Sequence record: AY753669.1
Direction: 5' to 3' (one strand)
Origin: Escherichia phage D6
Length of the DNA: 7,644 nt
Under the pieces are notes generated by a model, which saw only the letters and a list, made by a program, of their open reading frames with translations, ran no database searches and was not told where the DNA came from. Below are positions 1 to 7,644 of this stretch, piece after piece. Positions within the stretch are counted from its first letter, which is position 1, and every line of letters starts with the position of its first letter. Position numbers and translations under genes: made by a program.

Positions 1-5
1 TAGTA

Positions 6-263
6 ATGACCACCAGGGGGATGAGGGTTAGATTTCGCTGGAAAGCAGAGCAAGTAACGCCATTCAGAGAGCCATCAATGCCGCTGCAGGTTGAGCAGGA
101 TTATCTATGTTTACCAGAAATAGATGGAGGAATGCTGGTGGAGTCTGATGGTAGTAAGGCTGATTTTGAAGCCAATTTGAAGCTGGCACAGGCCGTAATC
201 AATAGTTATCGCGGAAAGTGGATCGCAAAAGTGAAACATGTTGTTCGTTTGTCTCGCTGGTAG
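6..263 (+). CDS. hypothetical protein, probably the 3' end of a gene that starts upstream of the window
   Basis: 85-codon ORF in the supplied track; the frame stays open to the window edge (no in-frame stop upstream of the ATG at 6), so the true start may lie outside. No motif recognised. Confidence 0.35.
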   Translation: MTTRGMRVRFRWKAEQVTPFREPSMPLQVEQDYLCLPEIDGGMLVESDGSKADFEANLKLAQAVINSYRGKWIAKVKHVVRLSRW

Positions 264-279
264 CATTAGGTATTTAATA

Positions 280-295
280 TTAATTTTCTAATACA
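280..295 (+). promoter_or_regulatory. copy 1 of a recurring 16-bp AT-rich motif (TTAATTTTCTAATACA); candidate repressor operator upstream of the 130-aa ORF
   Basis: Seen in sequence: 14/16 identical to the copy at 6123..6138 and 13/16 to the copy at 4713..4728, all in the same orientation and all in intergenic DNA just outside gene ends. Operator function is inference. Confidence 0.4.
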
Positions 296-371
296 ATCAT
301 CTTTTTACCAGTCTATACAGTTTTAACATTCTCATTATCATCCCCTCGGTCATTTCCTGCCCGGGGGATTA

Positions 372-764
372 ATGGAACAAATCAGCAGCGCAGAAATTGC
401 GGATATCATGATCAGGGCTGACTGCTATCTGACAGTCACTGAAATTACCACTCTCGCCAAAGAAAAATACCCTCATCTCCATGTTTCACGAGTAAGTGTA
501 ACTAACATCATTCGTCATTTTGTTCGTTCAAGCAGGGCAATCTGTGAGCTGGATGATCGTGTGTATCCACGAAAATACTGGCTACATGGTCTGAACGGAT
601 ATCAGTTCAAGGTGCGCGGGCGCACGCCTGAATACGGTAGCTTACTGGTTAAAAACTGTAGCAGGAAATCAGTCGAACAGGCGCGAAAAGAGCAACGAGA
701 GCTGGTGGACATGGCGAATAAGCTGTGGAATGCCGCCGTTAAAAAGCGTGGTGTTGCTTTATGA
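372..764 (+). CDS. hypothetical small basic protein, translationally coupled to pacA; positional counterpart of the P1 late-promoter activator gene lpa (unverified)
   Basis: 130-codon ORF; GGGGGA Shine-Dalgarno-like sequence 5 nt upstream of the ATG; its TGA stop (762..764) overlaps the pacA ATG (761..763) as ATGA. The lpa suggestion rests only on my recollection of P1 gene order, not on sequence similarity. Confidence 0.6.
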   Translation: MEQISSAEIADIMIRADCYLTVTEITTLAKEKYPHLHVSRVSVTNIIRHFVRSSRAICELDDRVYPRKYWLHGLNGYQFKVRGRTPEYGSLLVKNCSRKSVEQARKEQRELVDMANKLWNAAVKKRGVAL

Positions 765-2125
765 GTCTGGTTAATTGGGAGGAGCACCGCGCCCGCTTTA
801 TAGCGTTGCGTGAAGAAAAAGGGATCACTGTAAAGGAATACTGTGAGGAGCATGGCCTTAGCTTCAATACAGCCAGAAAGCATCTCAATATGAAAAAAAA
901 TGAGGTGCGGTCGCAGGTAAAGACAACAAAAAAAAGCACCAAATCACCTGAAAAAAAACGGGCGGGAAGAGCAACAAAAAAGCTGGAAGAGGGTGCAGAA
1001 AAAACAAAATTTACAGAAATTGACAATTCGCAGGGTGCAGGTTCTTTCCGAAGTATGCCAAGAAAGAAAACTTCGGATCATGAAAGTAATACCAATAATA
1101 ACAATGAGATAAAAGAATCTGTCAGGAGATCATTGCGCGAAAAAATGGCGAAAATGATCCCCGAAGAAGATAAAAGCGCCCCAAAAATTGAGGGATCTTC
1201 AGCAATGATCCCTGGCGGTGCTGTGCAGCGTGCCACATTGCCCACTACGAATGTGGCTCGCGATATGATGAAGAACGGCGCAGAAGAACACCTGCGGTTA
1301 GCAATTCAAATGGCGCAAGAGCGCGCACTTCAGTATCAAAGCATTGTTGATCAGGAGGCCGAACGTCTACAGGCGGAAATAGACGCCTTGGGCGATAAAG
1401 AGCCAGAAGGAATGCACCCTGGGCAGCGCCTTCTCGGTCTAATCAGTGACGCGGCCTACTACATGAATGATTTTATCAGTAGGTTGGCAGCTATATATCA
1501 GTCCGAACAAAAGCTGCGACAGGGGGATGAAAAGCTTCGTCAGAGCGCTCGCCAGCAAGCATTCAAAGAGGCTGAGGCCAGAGAAAAACTCGAATTAGCA
1601 CGCCTACAGGCCGAACAGCGTGGCAAAGAGATTGAATATCGCATTGGCGCTGACGCACGCGCTGCCAGAGTTATCGCCGCCGCTATACGTATGCGTGAGC
1701 GCGAGGAACTGGATGATATCGGTGTTGCTGAATACATCGAGCGCCAGGGGGTCAGCGTCCCGGCTATCCTCGCGGCGCGCGCGGCGAAAGCTATCACTCT
1801 TCTCGAACCACCTGTTTCTGACGTCAATGATGTTGATGATGAACAGCTGGACAAAGAGGCGAGGGAGTTTGCGACGCTTCAGGCTAACCATCCGCAATGG
1901 CTGGCAGAGCGCCGGGCGGATGTGGCAACCATTGTTGAAGAATTGGGGTGCGGAGATTACGACCGCAATGGCGAGCGTAAAGCTGGAGAATTCGAGGCCA
2001 ACGACGAAGAGCTGGATATTGACCCTTCGGCAACGGCTGATATTTACGGTGATTATGATGCATCTGATGCAGGGTATGACGCCGGAGATGATGATATCGC
2101 GATAGAACCGCCGGAGGATGATTAA
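761..2125 (+). CDS. pacA: terminase small subunit / pac-site recognition protein (PacA-like)
   Basis: 454-codon ORF immediately upstream of and overlapping (TAATG) the large-terminase gene. N-terminus (MSLVNWEEHRARFIALREEKGITVKEYCEEHGLSFNTARKHL) looks like a helix-turn-helix DNA-binding domain, followed by a Lys-rich low-complexity linker and a strongly acidic C-terminal tail (..DDDIAIEPPEDD), as expected for a small terminase. Contains a GATC-hexamer cluster (see 1075..1211). The P1 pacA assignment is by synteny and domain logic. Confidence 0.7.
   Translation: MSLVNWEEHRARFIALREEKGITVKEYCEEHGLSFNTARKHLNMKKNEVRSQVKTTKKSTKSPEKKRAGRATKKLEEGAEKTKFTEIDNSQGAGSFRSMPRKKTSDHESNTNNNNEIKESVRRSLREKMAKMIPEEDKSAPKIEGSSAMIPGGAVQRATLPTTNVARDMMKNGAEEHLRLAIQMAQERALQYQSIVDQEAERLQAEIDALGDKEPEGMHPGQRLLGLISDAAYYMNDFISRLAAIYQSEQKLRQGDEKLRQSARQQAFKEAEAREKLELARLQAEQRGKEIEYRIGADARAARVIAAAIRMREREELDDIGVAEYIERQGVSVPAILAARAAKAITLLEPPVSDVNDVDDEQLDKEAREFATLQANHPQWLAERRADVATIVEELGCGDYDRNGERKAGEFEANDEELDIDPSATADIYGDYDASDAGYDAGDDDIAIEPPEDD
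1075..1211. other. candidate pac (packaging cleavage) site: cluster of five GATC-containing hexamers inside the 5' third of pacA
   Basis: Seen in sequence: GATC at 1076, 1128, 1156, 1194 and 1207, i.e. five in about 135 bp, where chance predicts well under one. Hexamers read TGATCC (1155..1160 and 1206..1211 on top; 1075..1080 on bottom), TGATCT (1127..1132 bottom) and AGATCC (1193..1198 bottom). Established knowledge: the P1 pac site lies inside pacA and consists of repeated Dam-methylatable TGATCA/G hexamers flanking the cleavage point. Assignment here is by analogy. Confidence 0.35.
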
Positions 2126-3633
2126 TGGCTGGAGGGCGCAAGATTAAATGCGTCACCAGCGATCCACGCTGGCGCGATATGGTAATCAAATACCGCTACA
2201 ACTTTACCCAAGCTGTTGTCGATATTTTTGGGATGTTCCCCTCCCACCAGCAGCAGCAGATCATTCAGTCCGTGCAGGAAACGGGGAGTAGGACGACCGT
2301 CACGTCCGGACACGGAACGGGGAAGTCGTCCCTTACCGCGATGTTGCTGTTGATTTTCATGATCCTGTTCCCCGATGCCCGTGTCATCATTGTTGCTAAC
2401 AAGATAGGCCAGGTAAAAACAGGCGTATTCAAATACGTTAAACAGTATTGGGCGAATGCAGTTAAGCGTCATGGGTGGTTGCAGACCTATTTTGTCCTCT
2501 CTGACACCATGTTTTATGAGCGCTCCCGTAAGGGGATTTGGGAAGTTCTCTGCAAAGGTTATCGACTCGGCAACGAAGAAGCGCTGGCGGGGGAACACGC
2601 GGCACATTTGCTTCTAATTCTGGATGAAGCATCTGGTATATCTGATAAGGCGATCGGCGTAATGACCGGTGCTCTTACTGAAGAAGATAACCGGATGTTG
2701 ATGCTATCCCAGCCAACAAGGCCAAGTGGTTATTTCTACGATTCGCACCATTCTCAAGCAAAAACCCCAGACAACCCGAAAGGGATCTGGACAGCAATTG
2801 TTCTTAACTCGGAAGAATCACCGTTCGTCACACCACAATTCATCAAGCAGAAGCTTCTGGAATATGGCGGGCGCGATTCTATTGAGTACATGGTCAAGGT
2901 GCTTGGTCAGTTCCCACGAGAAATTAACGGCTATTTGCTTGGTCGTGATGAATGCGATCGCGCTGCTCGCCGCAAGGTGTTGTTGGAGAAAAACTGGGGA
3001 TGGGTGGCAACGGCTGACGTTGGTAATGGGCGAGATAAGTCGGTCCTCAACATCTGCAAGGTATCAGGTCACAGGGATAAGCGGCGCGTTGTTAACTTTA
3101 AGGTAATGGAGATGTCTGGCACTATGGACCCATTGGCCTTTGCTGACTTCATATATAACGAATGTACGCCGGAAAAATACCCGAATATAACAATCGCGGT
3201 TGATGCTGATGGTTTTGGTTCTGATACGTGTGCGCAGTTGGTGCGTCGTGGTGCGAACCCGGTACGTATTCGGTGGGGAAAACCCATGTTTGCGAACAAA
3301 GACAGGGAGCGATTTGTTAATCAGCGTGCCTACGCAAATATTATGGCGCGTGATGCCATAAAGTCAGGGCGTATGCGGATAGACAGTGACCCTAAAACGG
3401 CAGAGCAAGCGTCAAAAATCCCCTTTTTACTGAATGAAGAAGGGAAAATGGCGATGATGCGCAAAGAGCACATGCGGCAAAAGCTAAACATCAAATCGCC
3501 TGACCGATGGGATACCTACTGCTTCACTATGCTGGTGGACTATGTGCCTGCTAATGAAGATATTGGTGCCGAAATGGCAACTTTCCGAGATCAGGTTCTG
3601 GCGGATATCGAAATGCCGGATCTGGATATATAA
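2125..3633 (+). CDS. pacB: terminase large subunit (PacB-like; ATPase plus nuclease)
   Basis: 502-codon ORF. Walker A-like P-loop (VTSGHGTGKSSL) and Walker B-like hydrophobic stretch ending in DE (LLLILDEASG) in the N-terminal half; acidic nuclease-type segments in the C-terminal half (IAVDADGFGSD). Start overlaps the pacA stop (TAATG). Confidence 0.85.
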   Translation: MAGGRKIKCVTSDPRWRDMVIKYRYNFTQAVVDIFGMFPSHQQQQIIQSVQETGSRTTVTSGHGTGKSSLTAMLLLIFMILFPDARVIIVANKIGQVKTGVFKYVKQYWANAVKRHGWLQTYFVLSDTMFYERSRKGIWEVLCKGYRLGNEEALAGEHAAHLLLILDEASGISDKAIGVMTGALTEEDNRMLMLSQPTRPSGYFYDSHHSQAKTPDNPKGIWTAIVLNSEESPFVTPQFIKQKLLEYGGRDSIEYMVKVLGQFPREINGYLLGRDECDRAARRKVLLEKNWGWVATADVGNGRDKSVLNICKVSGHRDKRRVVNFKVMEMSGTMDPLAFADFIYNECTPEKYPNITIAVDADGFGSDTCAQLVRRGANPVRIRWGKPMFANKDRERFVNQRAYANIMARDAIKSGRMRIDSDPKTAEQASKIPFLLNEEGKMAMMRKEHMRQKLNIKSPDRWDTYCFTMLVDYVPANEDIGAEMATFRDQVLADIEMPDLDI

Positions 3634-3634
3634 A

Positions 3635-3651
3635 GCCCCGCGATGCGGGGC
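3635..3651. terminator. hairpin between the convergent pacB and 345-aa genes; possible bidirectional intrinsic terminator
   Basis: Perfect 7-bp stem GCCCCGC / GCGGGGC with a 3-nt loop (GAT), directly after the pacB stop and directly after the stop of the - strand gene (3661). There is a T/A-rich run on the - strand side (TTATATAT) but no clean U-tract on the + side. Confidence 0.45.
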
Positions 3652-3660
3652 CGGTTGTGA

Positions 3661-4698
3661 TTACCAGAGCTTCGCGGCGTACTGCGTTTGGGGGAATGTG
3701 TATCCGTAACGTTCTTCGATTGCTTTGCCGTATTTTTTACGAGCTTCATTCAGTTTAATGCCGGTCAGGTCGTCTCCAGAGGCCATCATTACGTCTAACA
3801 ATTCCAGATCCATTTTATCCAGCCTTGCCATTGCTTCACGTGATGTACGTATCTTACGCTCAATGATATGGCGAATAGCCGGATCGGCATCCTCCAGCAT
3901 CTTAGCGGATTTCTGCTTAAGGCTTTCATTGCGAATATCGATGTTCCTTAAGATGTACGACTTCGCAACGTAGCTTGGCTGGTGTTTTTCCAGGTCACGA
4001 ACACGATATAAGTTAAAATCGCCGAGAAGGCTGCAAGGTACCGATTCGACGCCAGAATAAATTGTAATGCTCCGGCGTTCACCAACATTATTGACAACGG
4101 GGATCGTTGTCTTCGGTAGTCTTGCGAAAACCAATGCGCCATGTGCGCCAACTCTAAAGCGAGAAAGGGCATTGCTGCCTTCGATGTTTGTTGTCAGCAC
4201 AACATCTGTATATGCCTCTTTACGCGCCCGGTAGATCTCGCCTTCAGGCTCAGCTTCAAAGAAGCGCTGTTCTTCTTCAAGAGCACCTACGATTTGAGAA
4301 AAAACCCTATTTTTCAGGCTTTTCTTTATGATTTTGTCGTATTTTTTTAGCAATTGTTCACGTGTAAATGTACGTGTTGTTGTAGCGCTTTGCACAACGA
4401 CATGCGTGCTTTGATTGGTGTCCTCAATGATGAATGGGATCGGAGAATATACAGACTCAACAATGTTCGACGCTTTGCCGTCGGCATCGCGGCACATGTC
4501 AACGAAGGCTTTCCATTCAGCAAGACATTTTTCAGCTTCTTCTAATATGTTTTGGTCATGCGTTAATGCAACATGGCGGAATTCCTCGCCAGCATAACTG
4601 GTATCATGGAAAACAGAGTTTGCGACCACCAGCTCTTTCCACCGTTCAGCGGTTTGCAGGAACCGTTTGTACTCTTTCTCGATCGACTTCTTACTCAT
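3661..4698 (-). CDS. c1: 345-aa protein at the immC position; putative C1-type immunity repressor by synteny (function unverified)
   Basis: Long - strand ORF convergent with pacB and divergent from the recombinase; AGGA Shine-Dalgarno-like sequence a few nt upstream of the ATG. In P1 the gene between pacB and loxP-cre is c1. I see no motif that proves repressor function, so CDS existence is about 0.85 and the C1 identity about 0.4. Confidence 0.55.
   Translation of the reverse strand: MSKKSIEKEYKRFLQTAERWKELVVANSVFHDTSYAGEEFRHVALTHDQNILEEAEKCLAEWKAFVDMCRDADGKASNIVESVYSPIPFIIEDTNQSTHVVVQSATTTRTFTREQLLKKYDKIIKKSLKNRVFSQIVGALEEEQRFFEAEPEGEIYRARKEAYTDVVLTTNIEGSNALSRFRVGAHGALVFARLPKTTIPVVNNVGERRSITIYSGVESVPCSLLGDFNLYRVRDLEKHQPSYVAKSYILRNIDIRNESLKQKSAKMLEDADPAIRHIIERKIRTSREAMARLDKMDLELLDVMMASGDDLTGIKLNEARKKYGKAIEERYGYTFPQTQYAAKLW
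3807..3885. repeat. 79-bp GATC-bounded segment inside the 345-aa gene that recurs in inverted orientation at 7309..7387 and 7566..7644
   Basis: Seen in sequence: the reverse complement of 3807..3885 is identical, base for base, to 7309..7387. It begins and ends with GATC. Confidence 0.9.
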
Positions 4699-4712
4699 TA
4701 TTCCTACTCGAT

Positions 4713-4728
4713 TTAGTTTTCTAACATA
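4713..4728 (+). promoter_or_regulatory. copy 2 of the 16-bp motif (TTAGTTTTCTAACATA); candidate operator in the leader of the 345-aa gene
   Basis: 13/16 identical to the copies at 280..295 and 6123..6138; lies 15 to 30 bp upstream of the - strand gene start. Confidence 0.4.
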
Positions 4729-4797
4729 AAATTACTATGACAAATTTATGTCGAATAACAGAGTGAGTAAAGGATCGAACTGTGATTTTTTGTCATC

Positions 4798-4813
4798 AAT
4801 TTTAGAAAACCAA
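4798..4813 (-). promoter_or_regulatory. copy 3 of the 16-bp motif, weaker and inverted (reads TTGGTTTTCTAAAATT on the - strand)
   Basis: Shares the TTTTCTAA core; 13/16 to the degenerate consensus TTA[AG][TA]TTTCTAA[CT]A[CT]A; about 70 bp from copy 2 in the same intergenic region. Confidence 0.3.
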
Positions 4814-4908
4814 CCGTAGAAACCACACTTCGCTAATTAAAGACCATGAAGGCAACGTGTTACTGGTCATCATCAATCTATGATGGATTAAAAAAAATCG
4901 GCATTTTA

Positions 4909-4940
4909 TAACTTTAAATAATTGGCATTATTTAAAGTTA
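4909..4940. other. rox: rox site: 32-bp recombination target of Dre (14-bp perfect inverted arms around a 4-bp asymmetric spacer)
   Basis: Seen in sequence: TAACTTTAAATAAT-TGGC-ATTATTTAAAGTTA. This is the exact reverse complement of the rox site as I recall it (TAACTTTAAATAATGCCAATTATTTAAAGTTA). Including the flanking A at 4908, one arm matches the loxP arm ATAACTTCGTATA at 10/13 positions. It lies about 150 bp upstream of the recombinase gene. Confidence 0.85.
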
Positions 4941-4949
4941 GGCTATAAT
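4922..4949 (+). promoter_or_regulatory. candidate sigma70 promoter reading toward the recombinase gene, overlapping rox
   Basis: -35 TTGGCA (4922..4927, spanning the rox spacer), 16-bp spacer, perfect -10 TATAAT (4944..4949). Established knowledge: P1 cre has multiple promoters in the loxP-proximal region. Activity is not demonstrated. Confidence 0.4.
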
Positions 4950-5092
4950 CATGTGTAGATGAACAGTATTGACATCACTGAAAATACGTACCTCCAATCA
5001 AAGGCTTGTATTTTGAAAATTAACTTATAGCTACCCTGTCATTTTTATATTTTTCGCGTAGCGTCATCTGTATATAGAGGTGAAATGGTTTC

Positions 5093-6121
5093 ATGAGTGA
5101 ATTAATTATCTCTGGCAGTTCCGGTGGTTTTCTGCGCAACATTGGCAAAGAGTACCAGGAAGCCGCAGAAAACTTTATGCGGTTCATGAATGATCAGGGT
5201 GCTTATGCGCCGAATACTCTGCGCGACCTCCGGTTGGTGTTTCATTCCTGGGCGCGCTGGTGTCACGCTCGCCAGCTTGCCTGGTTTCCGATCTCACCAG
5301 AAATGGCCCGCGAGTATTTTCTTCAGTTGCATGATGCCGATCTGGCTTCGACCACCATTGATAAGCACTACGCCATGCTTAACATGCTGCTTTCTCATTG
5401 TGGCCTTCCGCCACTTTCGGATGATAAAAGTGTTTCTCTGGCTATGCGGCGTATCCGGCGCGAAGCGGCAACGGAAAAAGGCGAACGAACAGGCCAGGCT
5501 ATACCGCTGCGATGGGACGACCTGAAACTGCTCGACGTCCTGTTGTCCAGGTCAGAACGGCTGGTGGACCTGCGCAACCGGGCTTTTCTCTTTGTTGCAT
5601 ACAATACGCTGATGCGTATGTCGGAAATCTCGCGTATTCGTGTAGGAGATCTGGACCAAACAGGTGACACTGTCACGCTACATATTTCACACACGAAGAC
5701 AATAACGACCGCCGCCGGGCTTGATAAGGTGCTTTCCCGTCGCACTACTGCTGTGCTGAATGACTGGCTGGATGTTTCCGGGCTTCGTGAACATCCTGAC
5801 GCGGTGCTGTTCCCGCCGATACACCGTAGCAATAAGGCCAGGATTACGACAACGCCCCTTACTGCACCTGCAATGGAGAAAATATTCAGCGACGCCTGGG
5901 TGTTGCTGAATAAAAGGGATGCCACGCCAAACAAAGGGAGATACCGGACGTGGACCGGGCATAGTGCTCGTGTCGGGGCCGCTATCGATATGGCTGAAAA
6001 GCAGGTGTCTATGGTGGAGATTATGCAGGAAGGAACCTGGAAGAAACCGGAAACACTTATGCGGTATCTGCGCCGTGGCGGTGTGTCTGTGGGGGCTAAT
6101 AGCCGCTTGATGGATTCATAA
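5093..6121 (+). CDS. dre: Dre, a Cre-family tyrosine site-specific recombinase (rox-specific)
   Basis: 342-codon ORF, GAGGTG Shine-Dalgarno-like sequence about 9 nt upstream. Clear Cre-like sequence throughout (e.g. SVSLAMRRIRRE, RNRAFLFVAYNTLMRMSEISRIRVGDL, TGHSARVGAAIDMA, EIMQEGTWKKPETLMRYLRR), with the Cre catalytic Arg, His-x-x-Arg, Trp and Tyr positions conserved. The N-terminus MSELIISGSS and the adjacent exact rox site identify it as Dre rather than Cre. Confidence 0.9.
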   Translation: MSELIISGSSGGFLRNIGKEYQEAAENFMRFMNDQGAYAPNTLRDLRLVFHSWARWCHARQLAWFPISPEMAREYFLQLHDADLASTTIDKHYAMLNMLLSHCGLPPLSDDKSVSLAMRRIRREAATEKGERTGQAIPLRWDDLKLLDVLLSRSERLVDLRNRAFLFVAYNTLMRMSEISRIRVGDLDQTGDTVTLHISHTKTITTAAGLDKVLSRRTTAVLNDWLDVSGLREHPDAVLFPPIHRSNKARITTTPLTAPAMEKIFSDAWVLLNKRDATPNKGRYRTWTGHSARVGAAIDMAEKQVSMVEIMQEGTWKKPETLMRYLRRGGVSVGANSRLMDS

Positions 6122-6122
6122 A

Positions 6123-6138
6123 TTAAATTTCTAACACA
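6123..6138 (+). promoter_or_regulatory. copy 4 of the 16-bp motif (TTAAATTTCTAACACA); candidate operator between dre and the downstream operon
   Basis: Begins 2 bp after the dre stop codon, about 55 bp upstream of the next ORF; 14/16 identical to copy 1. Confidence 0.4.
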
Positions 6139-6194
6139 TCTTTTTAGATTGATATCTTTGCTGTAAAGTACCCTCGCCTATTTTGGAGGGTGCT

Positions 6195-6539
6195 TTGCAG
6201 AGTCAAATCACGGAATCAAGACGCTTCACGGTGGATGGTTACACCGTAACCTTCGCCGCTGGTGTTAAGAACAGTCATGCTGTCGTTGTATTCGGCATCA
6301 TGACCGGGCTTGAGGCCGTCCCTGTGTTTACCCTCGAAAAAAACTGGCGAAATCTGGAGGAAGCAGAAAGCTACGTCCGGAAAGTAACCATCATTGCCGC
6401 CGAAAAACTCCTGGCCCACTATCAGGAAAATTATCGCACTATGGTCGAGAAGATTAATCTCGCTTTCACTCGCCCCACTACCGGCTTTATTGCACCGGAT
6501 ACTAATGCAGGTCGATATCCGGCAAGGGGGCGTCGGTGA
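6195..6539 (+). CDS. hypothetical protein (about 114 to 118 aa), first gene of a small operon downstream of dre
   Basis: ORF in the track from 6183. There is no in-frame ATG near the 5' end; the TTG at 6195 is preceded by GGAGGG (6185..6190) at good spacing, so I place the start there (alternatives: TTG 6183, GTG 6231). Its stop overlaps the GTG start of the next ORF (GTGA at 6536..6539). No recognisable motif. Confidence 0.5.
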   Translation: MQSQITESRRFTVDGYTVTFAAGVKNSHAVVVFGIMTGLEAVPVFTLEKNWRNLEEAESYVRKVTIIAAEKLLAHYQENYRTMVEKINLAFTRPTTGFIAPDTNAGRYPARGRR

Positions 6540-7012
6540 AAACTTATTACCCATCTCTGAATTGTTACCCGTCTTCCTATCCAGGATTGTCCGGGAAGCT
6601 GTTAGCTCTATTAGCTAAAGCACCTACGGAATGGTTTAAGCCAGTCGTTATCAATCCACACTTCCTGGATTACGGATCTGTTCGCACTCGTAACGAACTC
6701 AAAAACCTACTGGCGCATGGATTCATTCGACACCGTGCCGGTAAAGGCTATCAGTTATCGATTGCGCCAGAAGAGGCCGTGCGGCTATTCGCATATCGTG
6801 ACAGCCAGACAAAAGCTCGGGTAATAGCTCAAATACTTCATAACGGCAGCACCTATGCCCGCCAGTTTGGCGGCGACACGTCGCAGTTCTTGCGGGCGGT
6901 GCGATCGCTGGAGGAGCAAGGAGTTATTGAAAGTTCCTGTCTTCCTGTTCCAACCGTTCCACATATCAAACGTCGGGTTTACACCTTCACGCAGAGAGCT
7001 AAAAAACAATGA
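6536..7012 (+). CDS. hypothetical protein (158 aa), GTG start, translationally coupled both upstream and downstream
   Basis: ORF in the track; GTGA overlap with the previous ORF and ATGA overlap (7009..7012) with the dUTPase-like gene. Composition is protein-like; no motif recognised with confidence. Confidence 0.55.
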   Translation: MKTYYPSLNCYPSSYPGLSGKLLALLAKAPTEWFKPVVINPHFLDYGSVRTRNELKNLLAHGFIRHRAGKGYQLSIAPEEAVRLFAYRDSQTKARVIAQILHNGSTYARQFGGDTSQFLRAVRSLEEQGVIESSCLPVPTVPHIKRRVYTFTQRAKKQ

Positions 7013-7455
7013 TTTACGTAAAAGTGAAACGCCTACATCCGGCAGCAAAACTTCCAGCTTATGCCACCTCCGGATCGGCGGCGATGGATTTTGAGGCTGT
7101 TGAAATAAAACCATGTGTCGATAGCAATGGTGCAATTTCCTCAAGCTGGTGGGTGTACACCGGATTGGCTATGGAGATCCCGCCCGGCTGGTGTCTGAAA
7201 CTCTATCCGCGATCCGGATTGGGCTGCAAAAAACATACTCGCCTGGCTAACTGCGTAGGAATTATCGACTCCGATTATCGCGGCGAAATCATGGCAAAAC
7301 TGATTACTGATCCGGCTATTCGCCATATCATTGAGCGTAAGATACGTACATCACGTGAAGCAATGGCAAGGCTGGATAAAATGGATCTGCAATTTCCTCA
7401 AGCTGGTGGGTGTACACCGGATTGGCTATGGAGATCCCGCCCGGCTGGTGTCTGA
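7009..7455 (+). CDS. dut: dUTPase-family gene (trimeric dUTPase motifs I-III) whose 3' part is replaced or disrupted after codon 100
   Basis: N-terminal 100 aa carry dUTPase hallmarks: ..LPAYATSGSAAMDF.. (motif I region), YPRSGLG (motif II), GIIDSDYRGE (motif III). Motifs IV and V are absent. From 7309 the reading frame runs into the inverted 79-bp copy of the 345-aa gene fragment (reading DPAIRHIIERKIRTSREAMARLDKMDL) and then into an out-of-frame second copy of dut sequence, ending at 7455. The 148-aa ORF as drawn is therefore chimeric; it may be a pseudogene or an artefact. Confidence 0.55.
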   Translation: MIYVKVKRLHPAAKLPAYATSGSAAMDFEAVEIKPCVDSNGAISSSWWVYTGLAMEIPPGWCLKLYPRSGLGCKKHTRLANCVGIIDSDYRGEIMAKLITDPAIRHIIERKIRTSREAMARLDKMDLQFPQAGGCTPDWLWRSRPAGV

Positions 7456-7644
7456 AACTCTATCCGCGATCCGGATTGGGCTGCAAAAAACATACTCGCC
7501 TGGCTAACTGCGTAGGAATTATCGACTCCGATTATCGCGGCGAAATCATGGCAAAACTGATTACTGATCCGGCTATTCGCCATATCATTGAGCGTAAGAT
7601 ACGTACATCACGTGAAGCAATGGCAAGGCTGGATAAAATGGATC
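7131..7644. repeat. perfect tandem direct duplication, 2 x 257 bp (7131..7387 and 7388..7644), ending exactly at the window edge
   Basis: Seen in sequence: the two copies are identical base for base. Each copy is 178 bp of dut coding sequence plus the 79-bp inverted fragment of the 345-aa gene. The identical antisense 61-aa ORFs at 7141..7326 and 7398..7583 in the track are a by-product. Confidence 0.9.
7309..7387. repeat. inverted copy of 3807..3885 (79 bp, GATC-bounded); a second identical copy lies at 7566..7644
   Basis: Exact reverse-complement identity to 3807..3885, verified by hand. Confidence 0.9.

Follow-up and report, generated by a model that had tools for sequence, protein, structure and literature searches.

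Gene content of the locus

The window is a stretch of 7644 nucleotides from the sequence record of Escherichia phage D6 (AY753669.1). D6 is a P1-related plasmid prophage, and the Dre/rox recombination system taken from this locus is a widely used genetic tool. In order, the window contains lpa, pacA, pacB, c1 (on the minus strand), rox, dre, orf117, orf116 and the start of dut. The genes of interest here are orf117 and orf116, which lie in an ordinary, poorly characterized early operon (table 1). The open reading frames (ORFs) of the window match the annotated genes D6_117 and D6_116 exactly. A sequence-only reading had described them as overlapping frames chained to each other and to dut, and both the coordinates and the overlaps are correct: orf117 and orf116 share GTGA at 6536–6539, and orf116 and dut share ATGA at 7009–7012. 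A sequence scan detected no terminator-like site between dre and dut, and the packing of orf117, orf116 and dut into one putative unit with no intervening terminator is supported. The operon continues past the window with a Tad2-like gene and an isaA-like gene.

Table 1. Features of the orf117–orf116 locus; positions are counted from the first base of the window.
Feature	Position	Strand	Description
Candidate C1-repressor operator, AATTTCTAACACATCT	6126..6141	+	54 bp 5' of orf117 start
Operator core, TTTCTAACACA	6128–6138	+	part of the 16-mer 6126–6141
Possible weak promoter, TTTAGA–15 nt–TAAAGT	6143..6169	+	directly 3' of operator; read from sequence
Shine–Dalgarno sequence of orf117, GGAGG	6185..6189	+	5 nt 5' of TTG at 6195
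orf117 (D6_117)	6195..6539	+	114 aa; TTG start; hypothetical protein
orf116 (D6_116)	6536..7012	+	158 aa; GTG start; pI 10; PHROG 6669; hypothetical protein
dut (dUTPase)	7009..7313	+	5' two-thirds of gene; Pfam dUTPase match

Bases 1–7313 of the window are 100% identical to the D6 genome (MF356679 / NC_050154). Identity to MF356679 ends there, and 7314–7644 is non-D6 sequence. Positions 7309–7394 repeat part of c1 (3800–3885) in reverse complement, and 7131–7387 is duplicated exactly as 7388–7644. The junctions fall at GATC sites, which suggests that a chimera arose at the end of the window by ligation or in assembly. It cuts off dut, the full-length gene of which encodes 164 aa; the dut start and the ATGA overlap are authentic D6 sequence despite the chimera.

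Coding status and translation signals

The position of the orf117 Shine–Dalgarno sequence retains GGAGG or GGGGG among relatives. Homologues of orf117 start with TTG in eight of the nine relatives examined (relatives set L002–L004, L008, L015–L017); for orf116 the start codon was read in D6 and three relatives (L003, L008 and L009) and is GTG or TTG in each. These conserved non-ATG starts suggest that translation of both genes is held deliberately low. An alternative TTG start at 6183 was dismissed because the Shine–Dalgarno sequence and the homologues favour 6195.

Selection on the pair was estimated by the Nei–Gojobori method, comparing D6 with five relatives. The ratio dN/dS is 0.08–0.26 for orf117 and 0.06–0.13 for orf116. 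In the same five relatives dre gives 0.04–0.18 and dut 0.07–0.13. The sequence-only reading had allowed that the frames might lack codon-level constraint in relatives. With values of 0.06–0.26, similar to those of dre and dut, that objection fails; codon comparison shows orf117 and orf116 to be real genes, by this measure under purifying selection. An antisense ORF at 6216–6554 was also dismissed, as the homologues and the low dN/dS belong to the forward frame.

The upstream operator-like site

A copy of a 16-bp motif had been noted just upstream of the ORF pair, and the pair was proposed to sit behind a candidate operator. The copy is confirmed at 6126–6141, and the motif occurs far more often than chance allows. 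Three copies of its core, TTTCTAAYAYA, are present in the window (at 285, 4718 and 6128), all of them intergenic. The 91-kb D6 genome holds 12 exact copies versus 0.2 expected from Markov-1 simulations; 10 of the 12 are intergenic, in a genome with an intergenic share of 10.2% (binomial P approx. 7e-9). Operator-like sites precede c1, lpa, pmgS, icd/ant, repL (with one mismatch), orf52, hrdC–dmt, ref, pdcB and orf117. Five D6-like plasmids keep the motif 5' of their orf117 homologues, and more distant relatives carry different TCTAA-containing sequences at the equivalent position. In these respects the site behaves like a dispersed repressor operator, as had been proposed. Its recurrence and placement mark it as a genuine operator-type site, one member of a dispersed set. 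It is most probably an operator for the D6 C1 repressor, which we infer to bind there.

The C1 operators of P1 are dispersed asymmetric 17-bp sites, for example Oref, ATTGCTCTAATTGATTG. Like them, the D6 motif is present in many scattered intergenic copies before c1, repL, ant/icd, ref and other early operons, and a TCTAA core is common to the operators of both phages. The D6 consensus, about ATTAnTTTTCTAACAYA, differs from that of P1. The C1 proteins differ as well (345 aa in D6 versus 283 aa in P1), in line with the divergence of their operators. The D6 consensus provides a map of the probable D6 C1 regulon.

No consensus sigma-70 promoter was called between the dre/operator region and orf117 in a consensus scan. 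The TTTAGA–15–TAAAGT sequence directly behind the operator may act as a weak orf117 promoter; D6-like relatives retain both TAAAGTAC and the 15-nt spacing. Alternatively, orf117 transcripts may stem from read-through that starts at the dre promoter.

Relationship of orf117 to P1 C8

The sequence-only reading recognized no motif in either protein. This holds for the family databases: searches of Pfam, NCBIfam and PADLOC gave no significant match, and no family name, for D6 orf117 or for orf116. It does not hold for orf117 at the level of PHROGs, where the protein belongs to PHROG 1968 together with P1 C8. That grouping and the annotation of both genes as hypothetical were already known. The D6 record itself carries no c8 note for orf117, though many other P1 homologues are so marked. 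Neither protein shows homology to the housekeeping or structural phage proteins that had been named as grounds for abandoning the pair.

Several comparisons bear on the C8 assignment. The match of orf117 to phrog_1968 is full-length (residues 1–105, E 7.7e-48), as is that of P1 C8 (E 6.4e-53); the orf117 homologue of L009 matches with E 7.2e-29. An initial comparison of profile to sequence hinted at a relation between orf117 and C8. Aligned with hhalign, enlarged profiles of the orf117 and C8 families give a probability of 91% (E 1.1e-6) and a score of 40.6 over 84 collinear columns. Control scores are far lower: 300 column shuffles average 10.9 and never exceed 20.5, and a reversed control gives 9.2. 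Reciprocal hmmsearch returns 15.9 and 13.6 bits (per-comparison P approx. 1e-6). The alignment with C8 spans the whole globular part of orf117. Because of the PHROG 1968 match, the hhalign result, the reciprocal HMM scores and the position after the recombinase gene, orf117 is shown, as far as sequence comparison goes, to be a distant D6 member and the positional equivalent of the P1 C8 family (PHROG 1968). Widening of the C8 family by database search gave only sequences at least 85% identical; one divergent member from Aeromonas was recovered by tblastn on plasmids.

P1 C8 has 103 aa, shares PHROG 1968 with orf117, is similar to it in size and pI, and is collinear with it over about 84 residues. 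The gene position is also common to both phages: c8 lies directly 3' of cre in P1 (cre ends at 1467, c8 starts at 1518), and orf117 directly 3' of dre in D6 (dre ends at 6121, orf117 starts at 6195). Presence of a C8-type gene behind the recombinase gene is an ancient and conserved trait of the P1 supergroup. The two proteins nevertheless differ in several ways. Their identity is only about 15–20%, and C8 has no counterpart of the conserved C-terminal TGFIAP...RGR tail of orf117. In D6 the gene is translationally coupled to a second one, orf116, which is absent from P1. Finally, orf117 is preceded by an operator-like site, whereas P1 c8 has no annotated operator. The function annotated for P1 c8 is ‘establishment of lysogeny, putative’, and the NCBI name is ‘lysogeny establishment protein’; the link to c8 suggests a testable role for the D6 gene.

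In the AlphaFold2 model of orf117 (pLDDT 75), a four-strand beta meander leads into two helices and then a disordered basic tail, which carries the conserved TGFIAP motif. Structure searches with this model found no informative neighbours, and a BFVD search did not return C8. PDB sequence searches with the orf117 profile and with a combined C8/orf117 profile were likewise uninformative.

The sequence-only reading had also compared the slot with P1, placing cra and ref after cre. The first placement is wrong. The P1 record (AF234172) has cra upstream of cre; downstream of cre come first c8 and then ref, the latter with an annotated C1 operator. With cra upstream of cre and a ref homologue of D6 (orf87) elsewhere in its own genome, a relation of the D6 pair to P1 Cra or Ref was dismissed. 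A likeness to P1 ref and Oref does exist, in that each locus presents, just after a recombinase gene, a gene that is repressor-controlled and non-essential in P1 and putatively so in D6; ref is two genes after cre in P1, in contrast to the remote position of orf87 in D6.

orf116 as a winged-helix protein

The N-terminal half of orf116 is shown by its AlphaFold2 model (pLDDT 70–80) to have a winged-helix fold. The model of the C-terminal half is unreliable (pLDDT<50), and this half is better approached through sequence matches, all of them weak, which cover residues 88–153. A family profile aligns it with the winged helix of SlyA, including the wing (E 0.07). Among distant homologues, the C-terminal half of P0029 matches Pfam TrmB with E 2.5e-5 and 24.5 bits, below the cut-off of 25.6, and P0027 matches MarR_2 with E 0.017. 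The two halves of orf116 resemble each other weakly in hhalign (P 0.0012). The protein therefore appears to comprise two tandem winged-helix domains, the second resting on these weak matches. All members of the family are strongly basic (pI 9.4–10.1), and orf116 is predicted most likely to bind DNA. Compared with the winged-helix regulators of the ArsR/SmtB, MarR/SlyA, TrmB and Rrf2 groups, orf116 differs in apparently packing two units into 158 aa, and the dimerization helices of MarR or ArsR are not present.

The family is narrowly distributed. A search of 5.8 billion proteins recovered eight clusters, from close D6-like relatives only, and seven of 1.84 billion representatives matched in an exhaustive HMM search. 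In tblastn against 50 697 phage records D6 is the sole match; plasmid matches number about 130. orf116 has no relation to P1 C8. By these searches it is a lineage-restricted member of the winged-helix superfamily with no apparent P1 counterpart, and a concrete candidate for a lineage-specific regulator. It is also the most divergent gene of the operon: amino acid identity between D6 and L002 is 69% for orf116, versus 89% for dre, 80% for orf117 and 96% for dut. The corresponding value for C1 is 70%, so that orf116 seems to diverge about as fast as the repressor. At synonymous sites it is saturated, a sign that alleles may have been exchanged.

A model for the operon

The preferred explanation, which we give roughly an even chance, is that operator, orf117, orf116 and dut form an early regulatory operon under C1 control, and that both proteins act in the lysis–lysogeny or immunity circuit, a function that we infer. 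(i) In the lysogen, C1 would silence the operon through the operator upstream of orf117. (ii) Upon infection or induction, orf117 and orf116 would be made together and, given their non-ATG starts, at a low level. (iii) Coupling through GTGA would keep the two products in fixed proportion. (iv) The proteins would then regulate the lysis–lysogeny or immunity circuit, with orf116 as the DNA-binding component. Counting against a regulatory reading, the downstream genes, dut and the Tad2-like gene, are accessory or anti-defence genes rather than regulators. The findings on orf117 and orf116 do not overturn current views.

Lysogeny establishment is a poorly understood step in the P1 family. A more specific proposal is that orf117 and orf116 together constitute a lysogeny-establishment switch, in which orf116 would bind the c1–rox–dre region and set c1 expression, acting like lambda CII or as an equivalent of P1 Coi. 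For such a switch, orf116 could be a rapidly diversifying double winged-helix protein that is made only while C1 is absent. P1 carries coi at a place where D6, in the interval from c1 to rox, is without an annotated gene. As a whole the proposal is doubtful. More remote is the idea that orf116 mimics the tandem winged-helix subunits of SMC complexes and thereby protects the incoming plasmid from a plasmid-restricting SMC defence.

Distribution, synteny and competing explanations

D6-like plasmid prophages are common. The orf117–orf116 pair is plasmid-borne in 103 of 5426 complete Escherichia coli genomes (1.9%) and never chromosomal, and it is found in about 130 D6-like plasmids of Escherichia, Salmonella, Shigella and Enterobacter. 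All contexts inspected are D6-like or P1-like phage-plasmids with the order pacA–pacB–c1–recombinase–orf117–orf116. Whether the slot is variable across P1-family genomes had been raised by the sequence-only reading. The answer depends on the segment: the order recombinase–orf117–orf116 is conserved even at 25–55% identity, including distant metagenomic relatives, whereas the genes further downstream (dut and the Tad2-like gene) are variable.

The constant position behind the recombinase gene invites the explanation that orf117 and orf116 are accessory factors of Dre/rox, affecting for example dre expression, the direction or timing of cyclization, or dimer resolution. The order is strictly maintained over recombinase identities ranging from 100% to 55%, c8 is likewise next to cre in P1, and a strong promoter-like site over rox makes DNA-binding regulators there conceivable. 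Against this, Dre needs no accessory protein in heterologous cells: it recombines rox sites alone in such cells, including mammalian ones (e.g. PMC9127367, PMC4777119). The C8-like gene of an Aeromonas phage-plasmid does not adjoin a recombinase gene, and orf116 is missing from P1. A Dre-accessory role is improbable.

The composition of the operon further downstream supports the main rival to the lysis–lysogeny reading, namely that the unit is an early accessory or anti-defence cassette that supplies proteins for host takeover and counter-defence, these being the dUTPase, a Tad2-like sponge and perhaps orf117, with orf116 as its own DNA-binding autoregulator in the manner of anti-CRISPR-associated (Aca) repressors. 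The D6 gene after dut, orf114 (L001 2594–3034, beyond the window), encodes a domain that matches Pfam Tad2-like (Thoeris anti-defence 2) with E 7.7e-23, so the operon probably also contains an anti-defence gene; the variation of the downstream genes between relatives fits a cassette as well. On the other hand, orf117 is homologous to P1 C8, the reported phenotype of which concerns lysogeny, and PADLOC matches neither protein. Moreover, what is conserved in the operon is orf117–orf116, and what varies is the set of anti-defence-like genes. On balance a cassette of this kind is possible, if rather unlikely. Longer DUF2829/Tad2-like versions occur in relatives.

The adjacency of orf117 and orf116 is itself not universal, as another gene splits their homologues in L009–L012. 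Since P1 has c8 alone and the pair is split in these relatives, orf117 and orf116 need not act together. The same facts weigh against a two-gene toxin–antitoxin or abortive-infection module, with orf116 as winged-helix antitoxin or repressor and orf117 as its partner. Such a module would suit two small, overlapping genes, one of them DNA-binding-like, on plasmids of a kind that carry several addiction modules, and one distant homologue weakly matches AbiEi_4 (E 0.015). Yet PADLOC finds no match, no toxin-like fold or motif was found in orf117, P1 c8 lacks an orf116 partner and both genes are embedded in a longer operon. Membership of a toxin–antitoxin or known defence system was dismissed on the PADLOC result, the solitary c8 of P1 and the split pair; as an explanation of the locus it is very improbable.

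The gene inserted in L009–L012 (7436–7894) encodes 152 aa, belongs to PHROG 8101 and has a C-terminal CHG..C motif. A related gene is located two genes after the C8-like ORF on the Aeromonas hydrophila phage-plasmid (L014 5719–6159).

Other regulatory elements

The remaining copies of the operator core in the window are at 285–295, 5' of lpa, and at 4718–4728, directly before the c1 start. About 85 bp beyond the latter is an inverted partial copy, TTTTAGAAAA (4800–4809), which is conserved in five of six relatives. Together the two sites look like an autoregulatory arrangement for c1.

In P1 (AF234172, L013), the sequence ATTGCTATAATTATTTG at 1485–1501 precedes c8. It matches the -10/operator region of P2ref/Oref almost exactly and is similar to the C1 operator consensus, and it has no operator annotation. 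C1 control may extend to P1 c8 as well.

The rox palindrome, TAACTTTAAATAAT–TGGC–ATTATTTAAAGTTA (4909–4949), is overlapped by TTGGCA–16–TATAAT pointing to dre, the best sigma-70-like promoter in the region. Site and promoter overlap and are both conserved in six relatives, so that Dre, by binding rox, could regulate its own gene and those that follow.

A GTAAAG-containing element occurs 5' of orf117 (TGTAAAGTAC, 6164–6173) and again in the c1 upstream region (GAGTAAAGGA, 4764–4773). It is conserved across D6-like relatives and may represent a promoter element or a further site of protein binding.
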